Positions 1,049 to 17,791 of a stretch of DNA of 36,691 bases are shown here, one piece after another; position 1 is the stretch's first letter; each line of letters opens with the position of its first letter. Where the stretch lies: positions 1 through 36,691 of the IMG/VR virus record IMGVR_UViG_3300045988_081277. The stretch is one strand, 5' to 3'. This DNA is from a virus. Position numbers and translations under genes: made by a program. The notes under the pieces are model-generated. The model ran no database searches. It was not told where the DNA came from and worked only from the letters and a program-made list of their open reading frames with translations.

Positions 1049-1276
1049 ATGAAAATGCTAAATAAATTATTAACTTGGCTAGTAGGAATTGCAATTTTAG
1101 CAAACGGTATAATCTTGGTTTTAGAAATATTCTACTTCCCTGATATGTTTCTATTCAAGTTGTGGATCGCTGAGTTAGTAGCAACACTTGCAATAGTAGG
1201 GATCAAAGCGCATGTATCATATAAGGTTTTTGAGTCAGAGGAGGAAGAAAACAATGGAATTGATGGAAGAAATTAA
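1049..1276 (+). CDS. Small membrane protein (two predicted TM helices)
   Basis: MKMLNKLLTWLVGIAILANGIILVLEIFYF...; the internal ATG at 1049 follows ggggag. Confidence 0.55.
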   Translation: MKMLNKLLTWLVGIAILANGIILVLEIFYFPDMFLFKLWIAELVATLAIVGIKAHVSYKVFESEEEENNGIDGRN

Positions 1277-1640
1277 AGAGCTTAAAAAATACAAAGAAGA
1301 TAAAGATTTACCAATTGCAGAATTAGCAAGAAGGATTGAAGCTGATGATACAACGGTTGGCAGATGGTTAAAAGGTATGGCTACACCTAGCGACTATTCT
1401 TTACTCAAAGTGCGAAGATTTTTAGATAGTGTCAAAGGCTGGGAAGGCTCGAAAACACTAGAACCATTTAAAAATAAAATAACTAGAGAGCACGAACGAG
1501 CAAAGAAAGATATTAACTATCTAAAACAACGTATTAAGGCTTTAAACGATATTGAAGAGTTGGATCCACTGGTGGCCGAATTAAACACCATTACACAGCT
1601 TGGAAAACTTATGCTTGATGCTTACGACACTACATTTTAG
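1254..1640 (+). CDS. HTH-containing hypothetical protein
   Basis: ATG 1254 follows gaggaggaag. LPIAELARRIEADDTTVGRWLKG looks like a helix-turn-helix. Its 3' end is duplicated at 1971..2097. Confidence 0.7.
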   Translation: MELMEEIKELKKYKEDKDLPIAELARRIEADDTTVGRWLKGMATPSDYSLLKVRRFLDSVKGWEGSKTLEPFKNKITREHERAKKDINYLKQRIKALNDIEELDPLVAELNTITQLGKLMLDAYDTTF

Positions 1641-1949: not shown

Positions 1950-1962
1950 GGCTTGACCTTAA

Positions 1963-2097
1963 CAAGTCGTAAACTATCTAAAACAACGTATTAGCACTTT
2001 AAACGATATTGAAGATTTAGGTGCATTAGTAACTGAATTAAATATTATCACACAGCTTGGAAGCCTTGCGCGTGATGCTCACAAGACGTCATTCTAA
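1963..2097 (+). pseudogene. Start-less remnant copy of the 3' end of gene 1254..1640
   Basis: It translates to ..NYLKQRISTLNDIEDLGALVTELNIITQLGSLARDAHKTSF*, against INYLKQRIKALNDIEELDPLVAELNTITQLGKLMLDAYDTTF* at 1515..1640. There is no start codon or RBS. Confidence 0.75.
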
Positions 2098-2122: not shown

Positions 2123-2383
2123 ATGAACTATCAAAAGAAAGTAGATATGAAAGAAGTTAAAGAAATACAGAAACAAACAACTGAGATAGCTAAAATTTTG
2201 AAAAAAGAGGGCTATGAAGCGGGAGTAATAGCGTTAGGCAAAGGCACAGGAGTCGCGACTAATGTTTTTGGCAGCAGAAAAGATGTGCTATTTACTGTAT
2301 ACACTATTTTGGAAAATTTGAAAGAAGAAGACAAACTAATACTTTTATCTATGATCTCAGGTATCAAATTAGGAGATAAATAA
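2123..2383 (+). CDS. Hypothetical protein
   Basis: aaaggagaaattagcATG; MNYQKKVDMKEVKEIQK... Confidence 0.7.
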   Translation: MNYQKKVDMKEVKEIQKQTTEIAKILKKEGYEAGVIALGKGTGVATNVFGSRKDVLFTVYTILENLKEEDKLILLSMISGIKLGDK

Positions 2384-2400
2384 TTAAAATTTTGACCTTA

Positions 2401-2436
2401 GTTTCAGAGGAATGTTAAATCAATTGACCTTAGCAC
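2401..2436 (+). repeat. Solitary CRISPR-repeat-like unit, copy A (type II-A-like 5' handle)
   Basis: The sequence is GTTTCAGAGGAATGTTAAATCAATTGACCTTAGCAC. Its core matches 36509..36531 at 20/23 positions. It is bracketed by TTGACCTTAG at 2392..2401 and 2424..2433. Confidence 0.4.
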
Positions 2437-2871
2437 GTCATTAAACTGCTAAATACTGACGTGGTTATTTGAACGGTATACATTCACAAAAAACCGTAAA
2501 TCAGGATCTCGCAAATAACGACACAGTACAGGCTTAGCATCTGTCGAAGGGTGCTGAGTCATAGGTGGTAAAGATGCAAGGAAGCTATAAAACAAAAATT
2601 TATTAAAAAGGTAGGTGTAATTTCCCTTTCTCATTAATTCATGCAGTAGCAGCCAAGCAAATTTATTGCCGAAACTAGACTATCCTTAGTTGCAGACTGC
2701 AAATTGTGAGCAAAAAAATTATGAAAGAAGGTTCAAGCCTTCGTATATTCTTCGTATCTTGTTTGCAACTAATCTGCCTTGTATCCGCAAGATTTGAGCC
2801 GGTCACACGTTTTGAGGGCGTGGCAAGGTATTTATACCGGTATAATATTAAAACGATAAGGAGAGGTAAAA

Positions 2872-4582: not shown

Positions 4583-5476
4583 ATTTTACGACTAGACGAA
4601 AGAAAAATTCGAAAAGGAAAACCTATTGGACTCCCATATGTTGGAAGCAAGAAAAAAATATCAAAAAAAATCGTGGAGATAATCAAACAAAACTTCGGAA
4701 CTGATATACCAGTTTACGATGTTTTCGGCGGTGGTGGCGCAATTACTGCAGAACTGCTATTGAATAATATGCAGGCCCACTACAATGACTTAGACAGCGA
4801 TGTTACAAGTATGTTTACCAGAGTTATCTCACAAGATAGAGAATGGATCAAAACATTGGCTGTTTCACGCGATGAGTTTCTAACTATCCGTGATAAAAAA
4901 GGAAAAACAGTTGATGACAATTTGAAGTTACTGGTCAATTCTTTTGCGAATAATTCAAAAAATTACTTGTACTGCAAAGAACAGTCCAGGGCAAAATACA
5001 ATCTCGCAATTGAAATTATAAAAAAACATGATGTGTTTAGTGGCTACAAGCAAACGGGAACCTATCGAAACGCTAAACAATCATGGCGACCGGAGCAGTT
5101 AGAACGACTACAACAATTAGAACAACTACAACAATTAGAACAACTACAACAGTTGAAGGAAGCGCGAGGCCCAGAGATAACTAATTATGACTATACAGCA
5201 TTTTCAAATGTTGAGAATGCTATTTTTTATCTGGACCCGCCATACCAAAACACAATGAATGGATATAAATTTGAGTTCAATCATTCGTTATTTTATGACT
5301 GGTGTGTTGAGATGGCAAAAAAAAATATTGTAATTATTTCCAGCTACAGCATTCCAGATCCGCGTTTTAAGGTTGTTTGGGAGTTTAAAACGGCACGTGG
5401 TTCGTTTGCTGGAGGCGTAAATAAGAAGTATGAGCAACTTTACATGGTTTCGGAAGGATTAAATCAACTAAGCTAA
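4583..5476 (+). CDS. Orphan N6-adenine DNA methyltransferase (Dam-like, DPPY class)
   Basis: It contains VFGGGGAIT (FxGxG SAM motif) and FYLDPPYQNT (motif IV). The conserved N-terminal PYVGSKKK box lies upstream of the GTG 4673 used in the ORF track. That upstream extension has no ATG/GTG/TTG, and a GAGGGGG SD at 4568..4574 points to an ATT/ATA-type start near 4577..4583. Confidence 0.7.
   Translation: MLRLDERKIRKGKPIGLPYVGSKKKISKKIVEIIKQNFGTDIPVYDVFGGGGAITAELLLNNMQAHYNDLDSDVTSMFTRVISQDREWIKTLAVSRDEFLTIRDKKGKTVDDNLKLLVNSFANNSKNYLYCKEQSRAKYNLAIEIIKKHDVFSGYKQTGTYRNAKQSWRPEQLERLQQLEQLQQLEQLQQLKEARGPEITNYDYTAFSNVENAIFYLDPPYQNTMNGYKFEFNHSLFYDWCVEMAKKNIVIISSYSIPDPRFKVVWEFKTARGSFAGGVNKKYEQLYMVSEGLNQLS
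5096..5155 (+). repeat. 18-bp in-frame tandem repeat (3.3 copies) inside the methyltransferase gene
   Basis: cagttagaacgactacaa / caattagaacaactacaa / caattagaacaactacaa / cagttg; it encodes (LE[RQ]LQQ)n. Confidence 0.9.
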
Positions 5477-7285: not shown

Positions 7286-8701
7286 GTGGCAGACAGTGTA
7301 AAGATTGCTGGCAGTGCTTATATATCCAAGGAAGGCTTGTATCTTTATCCAAATGAAGAACTAACAGGCGAAGACGTTTTAACGTTTATTAACTATAACA
7401 GAGGTATCACAACGTATGGAGAGAACTACCGTTACTATACAGGTGAACATTCTATTTTAAAGAAAAAGTTTGATCCTAACAGCTTTAGACCAGATAACAG
7501 AGTGATTAGCAACTGGGCTAACTATGTTGTGGATACGTACATCGGTTATTTTATGGGAACGCCGGTTAAGATACAATTAGAAGACGATAACAAGAATAAG
7601 CTGCTGCAGAATTGGTTGAAGGCTAACACGTTTACAGACAAATTATCAGAGGTAGCCAAGCAGGTGGCAATCTATGGTTCGTCTTATATGTTGGCGTATC
7701 AAGATGAAGATAGCAATACTTGCGTTGCGGTAGTGCCGCCAGATGAAGGCTTCATCATCTATGATACAAGCATCAAGCGTAAACCTATCGCGTTTGTTAG
7801 ATATGCTTATTTTAATTCTGAATTAGTCGGAGAAGTCTATACTGACAGCAAGATTTATAGTATTGGCAGAGATGGAGCACTTGAAGAAACAGGAAATATT
7901 GTGCCATTTAAAGAAGTTCCAGCGGTAGAGTTCTATGCGAACGAAGAACGTTTATCTTTAGTTGGCAAGATCAGAACCTTAGTTGACACGTACGATAATG
8001 CAATCTCACAAAAAGCTAACGAACTTGAATATTTTGATCAGTCTTTCCTTCTAATGCTGGGCATTAATTTACCTAAGGATCCTAAAACAGGCAAGCCAAT
8101 CCTTGATTTTAATGGTGGCAAGCGTGTGTTTAATGATCCATCGCCAGAAGCAGCCAATGCGAAGTTTGAATTCTTATCTAAACCGGACAGCGACAATATG
8201 CAAGAGAACATGCTTAATCGCTTGGTTAATGATATCTTCCAAACAGCAATGGTAGCCAACTTAAACGATGAAGCATTTAGTGGTAATTCTAGTGGTGTGG
8301 CTATTAGATATAAGCTGCTAAGTATGCAAAATCAAGCAGCGTTAGAAGAACGCAAATTCACGATAGCTTTGACTAATTTCTTAAGCAACATTGCAAGTCT
8401 AGGCAAGGTTACCGGCAGTGTTACTTCCGATGAAGTCAAGGCTGGATTATCGTTCACATTCAAGCGTAACATACCGGTAAACGATGCAGACGAGGCAAAT
8501 ACAGCTAAAACGCTTGAAGGTGTTGTATCTAAGGAAACTCAGCTTAAAGTGTTATCTATTGTCGATGATCCTAAGGCAGAAATCGAAAAGATTGATACAG
8601 AAAAGGAAAATCTCATCAAACAATCATTACAAAACTCGATCAATGCTACTGATATGTTCAAAGGCGGTGTAGATGATGAAGCCGAAGAACAAGCAGAATG
8701 A
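7286..8701 (+). CDS. Portal protein (SPP1 gp6-like)
   Basis: Supported by size, position and the N-terminal region YYTGEHSILKK...PDNRVISNWANYVVDTYIGYFMGTPV. GTG start after taggaggtgg. Confidence 0.85.
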   Translation: MADSVKIAGSAYISKEGLYLYPNEELTGEDVLTFINYNRGITTYGENYRYYTGEHSILKKKFDPNSFRPDNRVISNWANYVVDTYIGYFMGTPVKIQLEDDNKNKLLQNWLKANTFTDKLSEVAKQVAIYGSSYMLAYQDEDSNTCVAVVPPDEGFIIYDTSIKRKPIAFVRYAYFNSELVGEVYTDSKIYSIGRDGALEETGNIVPFKEVPAVEFYANEERLSLVGKIRTLVDTYDNAISQKANELEYFDQSFLLMLGINLPKDPKTGKPILDFNGGKRVFNDPSPEAANAKFEFLSKPDSDNMQENMLNRLVNDIFQTAMVANLNDEAFSGNSSGVAIRYKLLSMQNQAALEERKFTIALTNFLSNIASLGKVTGSVTSDEVKAGLSFTFKRNIPVNDADEANTAKTLEGVVSKETQLKVLSIVDDPKAEIEKIDTEKENLIKQSLQNSINATDMFKGGVDDEAEEQAE

Positions 8702-14726: not shown

Positions 14727-15184
14727 ATACTGAAGAAACGGGACTATCAAGCGAGCAAATGTATCACGAGATAGTCCTTAATTCTTTGGCATATCTAGGT
14801 TTAGAGAATATGCAAGAGATTGAGAAAATGACGTTTGACGAGTATCTGATACGTTTAGAGGCGTTTCAACTCAGAACGATTAAACGTAATGAGGAACTAG
14901 CTTATCAAGCATGGCTTAATCAACAAGTGCAAGCTACAACAGGCAGTGCTAAGAACCCTAAGCCTAAGTTTAAAAGGTTTGATCAATTCTTTGATGCTAA
15001 CAAAATGGTCGATGAAGTCAGAGGAAACTTTGAGCCTGATTACAAGGCCACAAGTAAGCAAAACACACTACAAACCAACGAGAATTTGTTTGTAGAACGT
15101 CTCAAAGAGTTTAGAAAGCTCAAGAAGCAAGGAAAGATTATTCCTTGGAACATGAGAACTAAAAAGGAAAGGGGGGAGTTCTAA
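14385..15184 (+). CDS. Tail assembly chaperone frameshift fusion (gpGT-like; -1 shift at 14714)
   Basis: The downstream ORF (listed as 14759..15184) is in the -1 frame relative to 14385..14726. There is no stop between the slippery site and its listed start. Confidence 0.7.
14708..14714 (+). promoter_or_regulatory. Programmed -1 ribosomal frameshift slippery site A_AAA_AAC
   Basis: The zero-frame codons are gcA AAA AAC. The -1 frame is open from here through 15184. Confidence 0.75.
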
Positions 15185-17791
15185 ATGGCACAATCATTCA
15201 GCGTTAAAGCGGTATTGCAGGCTGTTGATGAAAACTTTACGTCAACTACAAACAAAGCTATGCAGGCAATGCAAAAGCTACAATCAGCAAGTGATACTGC
15301 ATCAAACGGCATGAGCAAAAACGCAAACTCAATGAGTAGCACATTCAAATCGATGGCCGGAGCTATGGGAGTTGTTCAAATTGCTGGTAAGGCTTTTGAT
15401 GTTGTTAAGGACTCATTAGATGGAGCCATTAGTCGTTTTGATACTTTGAATAAGTATCCGGTTGTTATGAAGGCTCTGGGCTATTCAGCGAGGGACGTCT
15501 CTAAGTCAACTAAATTGTTAAGCAATGGAATTGATGGATTGCCAACGTCGCTAGATGAGATCACCTCAAGTGCTCAACAGTTAGCACCCCTTGTTGGTAG
15601 CTCTCAAAAGGCTGCAAAATCAGCTTTAGCACTTAACAACGCTTTCCTAGCCAGTGGAGCAAGTGCCGGAGATGCAAGCCGTGGACTTACACAATACACA
15701 CAAATGTTATCTACCGGTAAAGTCGATATGATGAGCTGGCGGACGTTAATGGAAACCATGCCTATCGCCTTGCGCAAGGTGGCTAATTCGTTTGGCTATA
15801 CTGGAAAATCGGCAGAAACAGACTTATACAACGCTTTACAAAAAGGCAAAATAAGTGTAGAGCAGTTAAACGATAGGTTCATCAAGCTAAACGGTGGGGC
15901 AAATGGTTTCGCCAGCTTGGCAAAGAAAAACAGTGCCGGAATAGCAACGTCATTCGCCAATTTAAAGAATTCTGTAGTTAAAAATTTAGCTAATATGGTT
16001 ACGGCCATTGACAAAGGATTTGCAAAAGCTGGTTTTGGTTCTATTGCTCAACAATTAGATAACCTTAAGTATGCAATCAATGGAGCATTTACAGCAATAG
16101 GCCCAGTTATTACAAAGGCAGCATCGACAATTTTAAAAACCCTGTCAAGCATTTTTAATTTCGTTAGTCAAAACAAAGATTGGCTTAGCCCTTTGGCGGC
16201 TGGTATAGTTACTTTCATCGCTGCATTTAAAGGCGTTAAAGTTGCCACGAACGGCATTATAGCATTAATGAGTGGTTTGCAGAGCTTGCGGACATTCGTA
16301 CAATTGGTATCCGGTGCAAAGAACTCTCTAAAAGCATTCTTTACACTTTTAGGATTAAACCCGTGGGTTGTATTAATTGCCGGTGTTGCTGCAGCTGTTG
16401 CTGCTTTAGTTTGGTTCTTTACACAAACAAAAACTGGTCAAAGATGGTGGAAAGCGTTTGTTGATTTTCTATCTAACGCATGGCAAGGACTAGTTTCAAT
16501 TGCTCAAAGCGTGTGGAGTGCGATAACAAACGTGTTTACGGTGGCTGTTGATAAAGTCAAAAGTGTATGGAGTGGTATAACTGATTTCTTTTCAAATCTG
16601 TGGCAAGGAATTGTTTCAGTAGCTACACCTATTTGGAATAGTTTAGTAACAGTTATAACTACTGTATGGAATACAATTAAAACAGTAGTTCAAACAGGGA
16701 TTACCGCTATATCAACAGTAATTCAAACTGTTATGACAATACTACAAACGATTTGGTCAACGGTTTGGAATGCGATTGTATTAGTTGCTCAAACTGTATG
16801 GAGTGTGATTACAACAGCAATACAGACAGGAATGACAATGATTTCATCTATAATTCAAGCAACACTTACGATTATTCAAACGGTTTGGTCAACAATTTGG
16901 AACGTACTTGTAATAGTCGCTCAAACAGTTTGGGATATGATTGTAACTGTAATTTCAACAGCTATTAATGTAGTGGCTAGCATAATTCAAGCTATTACAC
17001 AAGCCATTCAAGGCAATTGGTCGGCAGTATGGGACACAATTGCTTCAATTACTGCTTCCGTTTGGAGTAGCATTACATCCGTTGTAAGTGCTGGGATTAA
17101 TGGTGTTAGAAGTGTGATAACATCTGTAATGAATGGCTTAAGTTCTATTGTCAGCACGGTATGGGGTAAGATCAAGAGCATATTCCAAGCCGGCGTAAGT
17201 TTCATCAAGTCAGTCGTTCACATTGACTTAAGCGCACAAGGTGAAGCAATCATGAACTCTTTCCTTGGCGGTTTAAAGTCAGCATGGGAGTCTGTTAAAT
17301 CTTTCGTCAGTGGTATTGGCTCATGGATCAAGAAACATAAAGGCCCTATCAGCTATGACCGTAAGTTGTTAATCCCTGCCGGTATTGCAATCATGAATGG
17401 CTTTAATAAAGGATTGCAAGGCCAATTTGAAACAGTCAAGGCAAATGTATCTAGTATGGCTGGTACGGTTTCTGATGCAGTATCTAGCAATTTAGAAGCA
17501 ATCGCAGTACCAAGCCCAGATACAAGAAACTTTATGGCGACAATGAGTGCTTTACAGAGTGCTAGTCAAAGTCTTTATAGACAGCATTCAGTAAGTTTTG
17601 GCGGGGCTTTCAGTGACAATTTAACAATTGATAGCCCTACTGTGGCACAGGAAAATAACAGTCTATTACGGAAAATAGCAGATAAACAACAGGATATTTA
17701 TCTCGATGGTGATGTGTTAGTCGGTAGTACGTACGATAGATACGATAATCGTTTAGGAAATCGAGTAAATTTAAAAGGTAGGTGGAGCTAA
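15185..17791 (+). CDS. Tape measure protein
   Basis: 868 aa, with a central hydrophobic region and many W-x-x-I/V periodic repeats (TVWSxI...). Position also fits. Confidence 0.9.
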   Translation: MAQSFSVKAVLQAVDENFTSTTNKAMQAMQKLQSASDTASNGMSKNANSMSSTFKSMAGAMGVVQIAGKAFDVVKDSLDGAISRFDTLNKYPVVMKALGYSARDVSKSTKLLSNGIDGLPTSLDEITSSAQQLAPLVGSSQKAAKSALALNNAFLASGASAGDASRGLTQYTQMLSTGKVDMMSWRTLMETMPIALRKVANSFGYTGKSAETDLYNALQKGKISVEQLNDRFIKLNGGANGFASLAKKNSAGIATSFANLKNSVVKNLANMVTAIDKGFAKAGFGSIAQQLDNLKYAINGAFTAIGPVITKAASTILKTLSSIFNFVSQNKDWLSPLAAGIVTFIAAFKGVKVATNGIIALMSGLQSLRTFVQLVSGAKNSLKAFFTLLGLNPWVVLIAGVAAAVAALVWFFTQTKTGQRWWKAFVDFLSNAWQGLVSIAQSVWSAITNVFTVAVDKVKSVWSGITDFFSNLWQGIVSVATPIWNSLVTVITTVWNTIKTVVQTGITAISTVIQTVMTILQTIWSTVWNAIVLVAQTVWSVITTAIQTGMTMISSIIQATLTIIQTVWSTIWNVLVIVAQTVWDMIVTVISTAINVVASIIQAITQAIQGNWSAVWDTIASITASVWSSITSVVSAGINGVRSVITSVMNGLSSIVSTVWGKIKSIFQAGVSFIKSVVHIDLSAQGEAIMNSFLGGLKSAWESVKSFVSGIGSWIKKHKGPISYDRKLLIPAGIAIMNGFNKGLQGQFETVKANVSSMAGTVSDAVSSNLEAIAVPSPDTRNFMATMSALQSASQSLYRQHSVSFGGAFSDNLTIDSPTVAQENNSLLRKIADKQQDIYLDGDVLVGSTYDRYDNRLGNRVNLKGRWS

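Follow-up and report, generated by a model that had tools for sequence, protein, structure and literature searches.

Solitary repeat units (SRUs) are said to have been noted first by Faure et al. in 2019. Francisella scaRNA and non-canonical crRNAs contain a repeat-like stretch outside any array that pairs with tracrRNA and is loaded into Cas9 with its flank as guide; they are host-encoded and have regulatory targets or no known role. Non-canonical crRNAs, which bear comparison with Francisella scaRNA, were reportedly described by Jiao et al. in 2021 as products of cellular transcripts. Racrs and SRUs were treated by Camara-Wilpert et al. (2023; PMC10651486), who catalogued type II SRUs and tested none of them; tracrRNA is never mentioned in that paper. 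The first reports of RNA anti-CRISPRs (Racrs) directed at Cas9 date from June 2026 and concern two kinds, single-guide-like RNAs and scaRNA mimics that bear a guide. According to the preprint by Feussner et al. (2026; 10.64898/2026.06.01.729453), a viral scaRNA (vscaRNA) joins a repeat-like element to a guide of ~11 nt that is identical to the guide of the host scaRNA and targets the cas9 promoter. The same preprint reports vscaRNAs in L. gasseri and Ligilactobacillus salivarius (pro)phages and in IMG/VR, and states that they 'also sequester endogenous tracrRNA'.

Two repeat-like units, copies A and B, occur in a phage genome from IMG/VR; by sequence they are solitary repeat units, and they probably serve as Racr-like tracrRNA-Cas9 decoys. 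The window, which is the whole stretch of DNA analysed, has 36,691 nt (positions 1-36,691 of record IMGVR_UViG_3300045988_081277). It is a circular contig in which nt 1-29 are identical to nt 36663-36691 (29-nt terminal overlap), so that A and B lie 2.58 kb apart on the genome (Table 1). Phage modules within it include Ant, RusA and an ArpU-like activator. All phage genes lie on one strand, and A and B are on the same strand, in crRNA sense, within an accessory region bounded by replication genes (RusA) on one side and by the ArpU-like late activator on the other. An ORF scan found no Cas9-sized ORF in the window, and no CRISPR array is present, the two widely separated units being its only strong repeat copies. 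The contig L046, otherwise identical, carries 2.3 kb extra at the end junction of the window (L046 4857-7161); this segment is flanked by ~55 bp direct repeats and contains an IS605-type TnpB gene. No relative of the copy-A locus was found among GenBank phages.

Table 1. Features at and around the two repeat-like units, with positions in the window.
Feature	Positions	Strand	Remarks
HTH_3-type regulator	1212..1640	+	HTH_3 E=3e-4, below Pfam cutoff; upstream of two small ORFs
Degenerate second R-element copy	1953..1995	+	Upstream of 86-aa gene
86-aa gene, function unassigned	2123..2383	+	SRU A lies 17 nt past its stop, in 3' UTR or read-through
Upstream TTGACCTTAG	2392..2401	+	Duplicate of first 10 bp of R-element; extra copy only in SRU-A phages
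SRU A	2401..2424	+	24-nt mimic of L. salivarius II-A repeat positions 1-24, 22/24 (core 21/23)
R-element TTGACCTTAGCACGTC...ACTGCTAAAT...GACGTGGTTATTTGAACGGTATACAT	2424..2480	+	Conserved promoter-like start of long leader; includes downstream TTGACCTTAG
salivarius-1 RNA (Rfam)	2776..2831	+	76.8 bits, E=2e-15; neighbour of SRU A, not part of it
Predicted sigma-70 promoter, TTGACA-16-TGtTATGAT	36458..36485	+	Near-consensus, 11/12 matches, with TG; would drive SRU B
SRU B	36509..36541	+	Full-length-type mimic, ungapped to repeat positions 1-33, 27/33
DUF5067 lipoprotein gene remnant	36575..36688	+	3' of SRU B; start lost by 12-nt deletion; truncated

The alignments trace the two copies to a type II-A CRISPR repeat. 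An earlier note on this DNA had described copy A as a solitary type II-A repeat-like unit with neither array nor cas genes, and the alignment scores and the ORF scan agree; the coordinates and sequences that it gave for copy A are exact, including TTGACCTTAG at 2392-2401 and again at 2424-2433. The copy A core, GTTTCAGAGGAATGTTAAATCAA, occupies 2401-2423, and 2401-2436 reads GTTTCAGAGGAATGTTAAATCAATTGACCTTAGCAC. Alignment with host repeats, a check that the note had suggested, returns significant similarity to the L. salivarius II-A repeat, which is GTTTCAGAAGTATGTTAAATCAAT[A/T]AGGTTAAGACC in eight cas9 loci (fetched via the Cas9 of one array-bearing locus): local alignment scores are 38 for A and 37 for B, and 150 Markov-shuffled windows give a maximum of 33 and a 95th percentile of 28. 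The portion of the repeat covered by A is that kept in mature crRNA, and the claimed likeness to the 5' part of the repeat that pairs with tracrRNA is thereby borne out. The second copy had been presented as a core at 36509-36531; its three mismatches to the core of A are as stated (matches at <=3 mismatches expected by chance: 0, from 100 shuffles), but the likeness is not merely that of a 23-nt core, since it extends over repeat positions 1-33. An insertion of 6-8 nt in copy B was considered and rejected, the ungapped alignment being simpler.

In degenerate form, the core matches II-A arrays with a 66-bp period across Lactobacillaceae (one genome per species), in Ligilactobacillus, Pediococcus, Lentilactobacillus, Limosilactobacillus and others. 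The L. buchneri-type repeat that the earlier note cited is real, with GTTTTAGAAGGATGTTAAATCAATAAGGTTAAACCC present in Lentilactobacillus arrays and a match to copy A of 21/24. Best 36-mer matches in 2.3 Gb of GenBank phages have E of at least 0.1, which is chance level, and no Lactobacillaceae phage with the repeat appeared there. Rfam searches around both copies returned no CRISPR-DR or tracrRNA family, even with E up to 10, and only salivarius-1. For the copy-A junction in IMG/VR, L001 is the sole genuine match, the seven others being chance 17-mers, and a metagenome scan for A11-type cores recovered the L001 contig again and one array variant, nothing else.

Among the spacers of the fetched L. 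salivarius II-A arrays, thirteen match the window at 1-5 mismatches, and the 3' flanks of these matches give a protospacer-adjacent motif (PAM) of about NGGnTA. The matches identify both the host and the selective pressure: the L. salivarius Cas9 system targets this phage lineage and, to judge from the spacers, repeatedly acquires new ones against it. Spacers, repeat and tracrRNA together point to Ligilactobacillus salivarius as the host, and the host genera proposed in the earlier note are wrong. Copies A (21/23) and B (27/33) show a significant likeness to a CRISPR repeat, lie outside any array in a window without cas genes, and are carried by a mobile element, recognizable by its phage modules, whose host has the matching CRISPR subtype. 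One host array also holds a self-match: the first spacer of the L030 array (16137-16166) is identical over 30/30 nt to 8311-8340, in a 2-hydroxyacid dehydrogenase gene ~1.7 kb upstream of cas9, with a non-NGG flank (GATATT).

The host tracrRNA gene sits in the cas9-cas1 interval, encoded on the opposite strand, and its anti-repeat is identical in 8/8 L. salivarius loci; published RNA-seq agrees with its orientation and size (PMC11288051). Folding of the units with this anti-repeat, which had also been suggested as a check, predicts pairing for both A and B. Predicted 24-nt duplexes with tracrRNA reach -22.3 kcal/mol for A, -19.8 kcal/mol for B and -18.2 kcal/mol for the native repeat, so that over the mature-crRNA portion both units are predicted to pair at least as well as the native sequence; predicted full-length duplexes are -32.7 kcal/mol for B versus -34.9 kcal/mol for the native repeat. 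B is the top predicted tracrRNA binder among 24,438 36-nt tiles from both strands of the window. The predicted duplexes of A and B have the canonical lower stem, bulge and upper stem, which are the features by which a Racr would enter the effector via tracrRNA pairing and which are present here in silico; a repeat part complementary to the anti-repeat, as in vscaRNAs, is likewise found in both. No structure is predicted for the SRU regions, which should hence be accessible.

Individual substitutions point in more than one direction. Both units carry A at repeat position 11, so that the U-U mismatch between native repeat and tracrRNA gives way to an A-U pair. B also has G25 paired with tracrRNA C15, a position at which the native repeat sets A against C. 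The substitutions C2, C24 and C29 of B weaken pairing and count against a decoy role. A11 is also found in the degenerate terminal repeat of host arrays and may therefore mark the donor sequence and not selection for tracrRNA pairing. That terminal repeat, GTTTCAGAAGAATGTTAAATTAATAGGGTCGAGGCC, lies at the array ends of L028-L031 (e.g., L029 16761); it has A11 like the phage mimics, and its predicted tracrRNA pairing is -38.2 kcal/mol, stronger than that of the regular repeat (-34.9 kcal/mol).

Two weaker resemblances lie within genes of the window. At 14864-14894 (+), inside ORF 14759-15184, TTTCAACTCAGAACGATTAAACGTAATGAGG resembles the exact complement of the tracrRNA anti-repeat, bulge included, with a 13-nt exact run, a score of 31 against a null maximum of 30 and a predicted duplex of -30 kcal/mol; this may reflect chance or a third tracrRNA-binding site, one that lies in an mRNA. 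At 5447-5472 (+), in the last nine codons of ORF 4673-5476, GTTTCGGAAGGATTAAATCAACTAAG resembles positions 1-27 of a G11-type Ligilactobacillus/Pediococcus repeat with one 2-nt gap and a score of 31 (3/200 null windows score at least 30), and it may be a decayed mimic. A comparable overlap exists in the relative L054, between its first tandem mimic and the final codons plus stop of a small ORF.

The interpretation that we favour, and to which we give an even chance on the sequence evidence, is that A and B are phage decoys that mimic the host II-A repeat and, independently of any guide, sequester tracrRNA and Cas9. It is supported directly by repeat origin, host match, strand and predicted pairing, and by gains and losses of the units among relatives. 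We infer that the units are transcribed, that their RNAs load into Cas9 and that inhibition follows. Transcription of B would start at its own strong predicted promoter and make B the 5' leader of what was a lipoprotein gene, now decayed; A would be transcribed within the 3' UTR, or by read-through, of an early accessory operon. The SRU RNAs would then pair with the host tracrRNA anti-repeat in the same stem/bulge/stem duplex as a genuine crRNA. Such pairing would titrate tracrRNA and load Cas9 with a useless phage-derived 'guide', and fewer Cas9:tracrRNA complexes would be left to carry the many phage-targeting spacers of the host. B would pair along the full repeat and, like a genuine repeat, might be open to RNase III cleavage; pairing of A would be confined to the 24 nt that mature crRNA retains. 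The 'guide' would be harmless to the phage itself, as in the phage's own copy of it the mimic (GTTTCA / GCTTCA) sits where an NGG-type PAM would be. Several observations count against decoys: host arrays of 10-57 repeats must be out-competed, SRU A lacks its own promoter and terminator, and no match to known Acr families or PDB chains occurs near copy A.

The surroundings of copy A explain the direct repeats that bracket it. The R-element has the conserved form TTGACCTTARCAMGTC...ACTG[C/T]TAAAT...GACGTGGTTATTTGAACGGTATACAT; it occurs without any SRU in L049, L051, L052 and L053, and directly after tandem SRUs in L054/L110. Since the element is present in mimic-less relatives, the bracket is a local duplication of its start and lies outside the mimic, and the earlier reading of the 10-bp bracket as a feature of the mimic does not hold. 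The 10-mer TTGACCTTAG is not unusual in the window, with four matches at <=1 mismatch against 2.35 expected. Its flanking copies were also considered as a mimic of the tracrRNA 5' end or as a guide to the tracrRNA gene; this was rejected because the element occurs in mimic-less relatives and because, at the tracrRNA site, there is a mismatch in the seed and no PAM.

Upstream of A, the 86-aa protein and the neighbours of A have no PHROG, Pfam or PDB-sequence match, and the AlphaFold model of the 86-aa protein is poor (pLDDT 61). Homologues of its gene in relatives follow an HTH_3 gene, and the HTH_3 regulator with two small genes resembles an aca/acr operon by analogy of layout. The region 2384-2871, in which A lies, holds no convincing ORF, as the earlier note had it. 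This ~490-nt stretch is a conserved non-coding leader upstream of a 164-aa gene; salivarius-1 lies within it, and the differences of L001 inside salivarius-1 include paired C>T / G>A changes. Between the window and L001, a whole block of 314 nt around A shows no differences, and the conservation is therefore not SRU-specific.

Copy B sits in a different setting, 23 nt past the -10 box of the near-consensus promoter. It is part of an insertion of ~66 nt that holds B and a new ribosome-binding site. The insertion is absent from L001, L118 and L124, which share the promoter and 5' UTR of the window and have AGGACAAACAA before the lipoprotein ATG in place of the block. B is present in L043 and L046-L048. 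In L043 (487-1341) the DUF5067 lipoprotein gene is intact (284 aa) alongside B; in the window and L046-L048 the gene lacks its ATG and is truncated, with promoter and B untouched. A search for the donor of the copy-B insert gave a single match, in a coding region and attributable to chance. Between RusA and the copy-B promoter, 36290-36420 (+) contains repeated GCTCTYAGARGAC motifs with a terminator-like hairpin (14-bp stem) at 36385-36417; a 78%-similar copy of this region lies elsewhere in L001, and no Rfam family is found in it at threshold.

Variation at the copy-A site is similarly structured. SRU A is identical in L001, L043, L044 and L045. L054 and the IMG/VR contig L110 have two tandem truncated mimics (21-24 nt) there with no spacer between them, GTTTCAGAAGAATGTTAAACCAAT then TGCTTCAGAAGAATGTTAAAT, abutting the R-element; the site is mimic-less in L049 and L051-L053. 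By these comparisons, SRUs were gained repeatedly and independently, at two sites. In every SRU variant the first nucleotide corresponds exactly to repeat position 1, and ~20 nt or more of the 5' handle are retained. All SRU carriers compared are phages more than 90% identical, and this close relationship leaves no useful covariation.

Other phages carry mimics in other arrangements. A different SRU, exact over repeat nt 1-26, occurs in the lysogeny region of other L. salivarius-type phages, L003 (6631-6925) and L002 (from 163); immediately downstream of it comes an 81-aa gene that is Tad2-like (anti-Thoeris). In L097 (minus strand), L104 (12224) and L004 (2753) a mimic has the layout of a stand-alone small-RNA gene, namely a -10 box, ~25-35 nt, a ~20-nt mimic and a hairpin terminator; these three units are candidate viral scaRNAs.

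The units could also be neutral scars, functionless fragments of host arrays captured by illegitimate recombination in a hypervariable accessory region. We consider this unlikely, although it survives better than the other alternatives. The region is a mosaic in which indels are frequent, L046 has an IS605 insertion and one gene has decayed; microhomology exists between the repeat (TGTTAAAT) and the R-element (CTG[C/T]TAAAT), and the conservation around A extends beyond the SRU. Random capture, on the other hand, would yield random parts of the repeat in either orientation, whereas at least five independent SRU variants start at repeat position 1 and keep the 5' handle that binds Cas9/tracrRNA. 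All of them are in crRNA sense on the transcribed strand, one follows a consensus promoter and two are in tandem.

Quite improbable is a strict vscaRNA, in which the ~11 nt upstream of each unit would guide Cas9:tracrRNA to repress the promoter of cas9 (or of tracrRNA or the array) without cutting. This exact class is reported for L. salivarius phages in the preprint (10.64898/2026.06.01.729453), B begins ~17-19 nt past the predicted transcription start, in the manner of a crRNA unit delimited by where transcription begins, and a promoter-guide-SRU-terminator layout exists in L097, L104 and L004. No 3'-anchored guide match of at least 9 nt was found for A or B in eight L. salivarius II-A loci with 10 kb on either side and five related-species loci, a set that leaves out the preprint strains S39, 778 and FYNDL5_1. 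The only near-matches of both guides do fall in the cas9-cas1 spacer, for A at the 5' end of the tracrRNA gene (10/11) and for B upstream of cas1 (9/11), but they have seed mismatches and non-NGG flanks (TTGATT, AAGATT). Moreover, the 'guide' of A is the conserved R-element, that of B is a pre-existing 5' UTR of the lipoprotein gene found also in SRU-less L001, and the tandem SRUs of L054 are guide-less. With no guide matching the cas9 or tracrRNA promoters in the eight host loci, A and B are not strict vscaRNAs.

A role at the DNA level is less probable still and, in our view, very unlikely. The AT-rich mimic would then be an UP-element or an extended -10-like box (TGTTAAAT) within tandem promoters built on the duplicated TTGACC box. 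The spacing is suggestive, since TTGACC (2392) lies 17 nt from TTAAAT (2415-2420) in a mirror of the R-element layout, and SRUs abut a -35-like box in both the window and L054. This arrangement leaves unexplained GTTTCAGA, the 21-27 nt of identity to the host repeat and the position of B downstream of a promoter; the scan also called no promoter at A, owing to the missing A at position 2 of the -10 box.

A somewhat slimmer chance attaches to SRU B as a weapon. A crRNA-like RNA with a 17-19-nt guide, transcribed from the promoter of B and processed, would direct host Cas9 against competitor phages, its guide being the old 5' UTR of the lipoprotein gene. L001, L118 and L124 carry the B 'guide' sequence followed by GGACAA, which resembles the observed protospacer flank CGACAA, and the copy of an SRU-B phage itself would be protected because the mimic replaces the PAM. 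If true, a resident or co-infecting SRU-B phage would turn host Cas9 on its sibling phages; one PAM-proximal and one distal mismatch in the B-guide match make this unlikely. Chance similarity is effectively refuted: the sequence is AT-rich and core 17-mers recur by chance in many unrelated viral coding regions, but two separate alignment scores exceed the null maximum, the best matches to the 36-mer in GenBank phages are at chance level and the host match is independently established by spacers.

The phage lineage of A and B offers a natural series, from no mimic, through one 24-nt mimic and two tandem guide-less mimics, to a promoter-driven full-length mimic. Such a series would permit a direct test of whether guide-less repeat mimics titrate tracrRNA enough to blunt Cas9 immunity, and it could show what copy number and repeat length are needed. 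Cell-free Cas9/tracrRNA assays exist for L. salivarius (PMC11288051). The question has practical relevance for phage resistance and for CRISPR-based engineering of probiotic L. salivarius.

Copies A and B can be set beside each of the described systems. Like Racrs, they are phage-borne solitary repeats of the host CRISPR subtype and would work by mimicking the repeat at the molecular level. The Racrs that were tested are directed at class 1 and type V systems, their repeat hairpin being what binds the Cas proteins; in type II, a mimic must act through tracrRNA pairing instead. A mini-CRISPR array would have at least two repeats around a spacer of ~30 nt, and here the copies are 2.58 kb apart and the L054 pair is spacer-less. 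Francisella scaRNA and non-canonical crRNAs differ in context, as A and B are carried by a phage that the same Cas9 system targets. With vsgRNA / rAcrIIA1, as outlined in two preprints (10.64898/2026.06.01.729453; 10.64898/2026.06.03.729762), the likeness is a phage RNA that would occupy Cas9; those RNAs are fused crRNA-tracrRNA molecules, single-guide-like and derived from tracr-L. Downstream of A and B there is no anti-repeat, nexus or tracrRNA tail, and the sole likeness to a tracrRNA tail (14/16 nt) lies in the leader and recurs in SRU-less relatives. Without a tracrRNA-like scaffold 3' of either unit, A and B are not viral single-guide RNAs.

The vscaRNAs are likewise phage II-A repeat-like elements complementary to the tracrRNA anti-repeat, and sequestration of tracrRNA and Cas9 is proposed for them in the preprint. 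The class is defined by the guide match, which was not found for A and B, and its members are stand-alone sRNA genes, whereas A and B lie within mRNA UTRs, several per genome. A type II-A mimic is less unusual than the earlier note supposed, given the type II SRUs catalogued in PMC10651486 and the vscaRNAs described in 10.64898/2026.06.01.729453. The interpretation in that note was right in kind, with the host and the bracket now corrected; copies A and B fit a wider class, that of SRUs and Racr candidates, and add a member to a kind of element described only lately.
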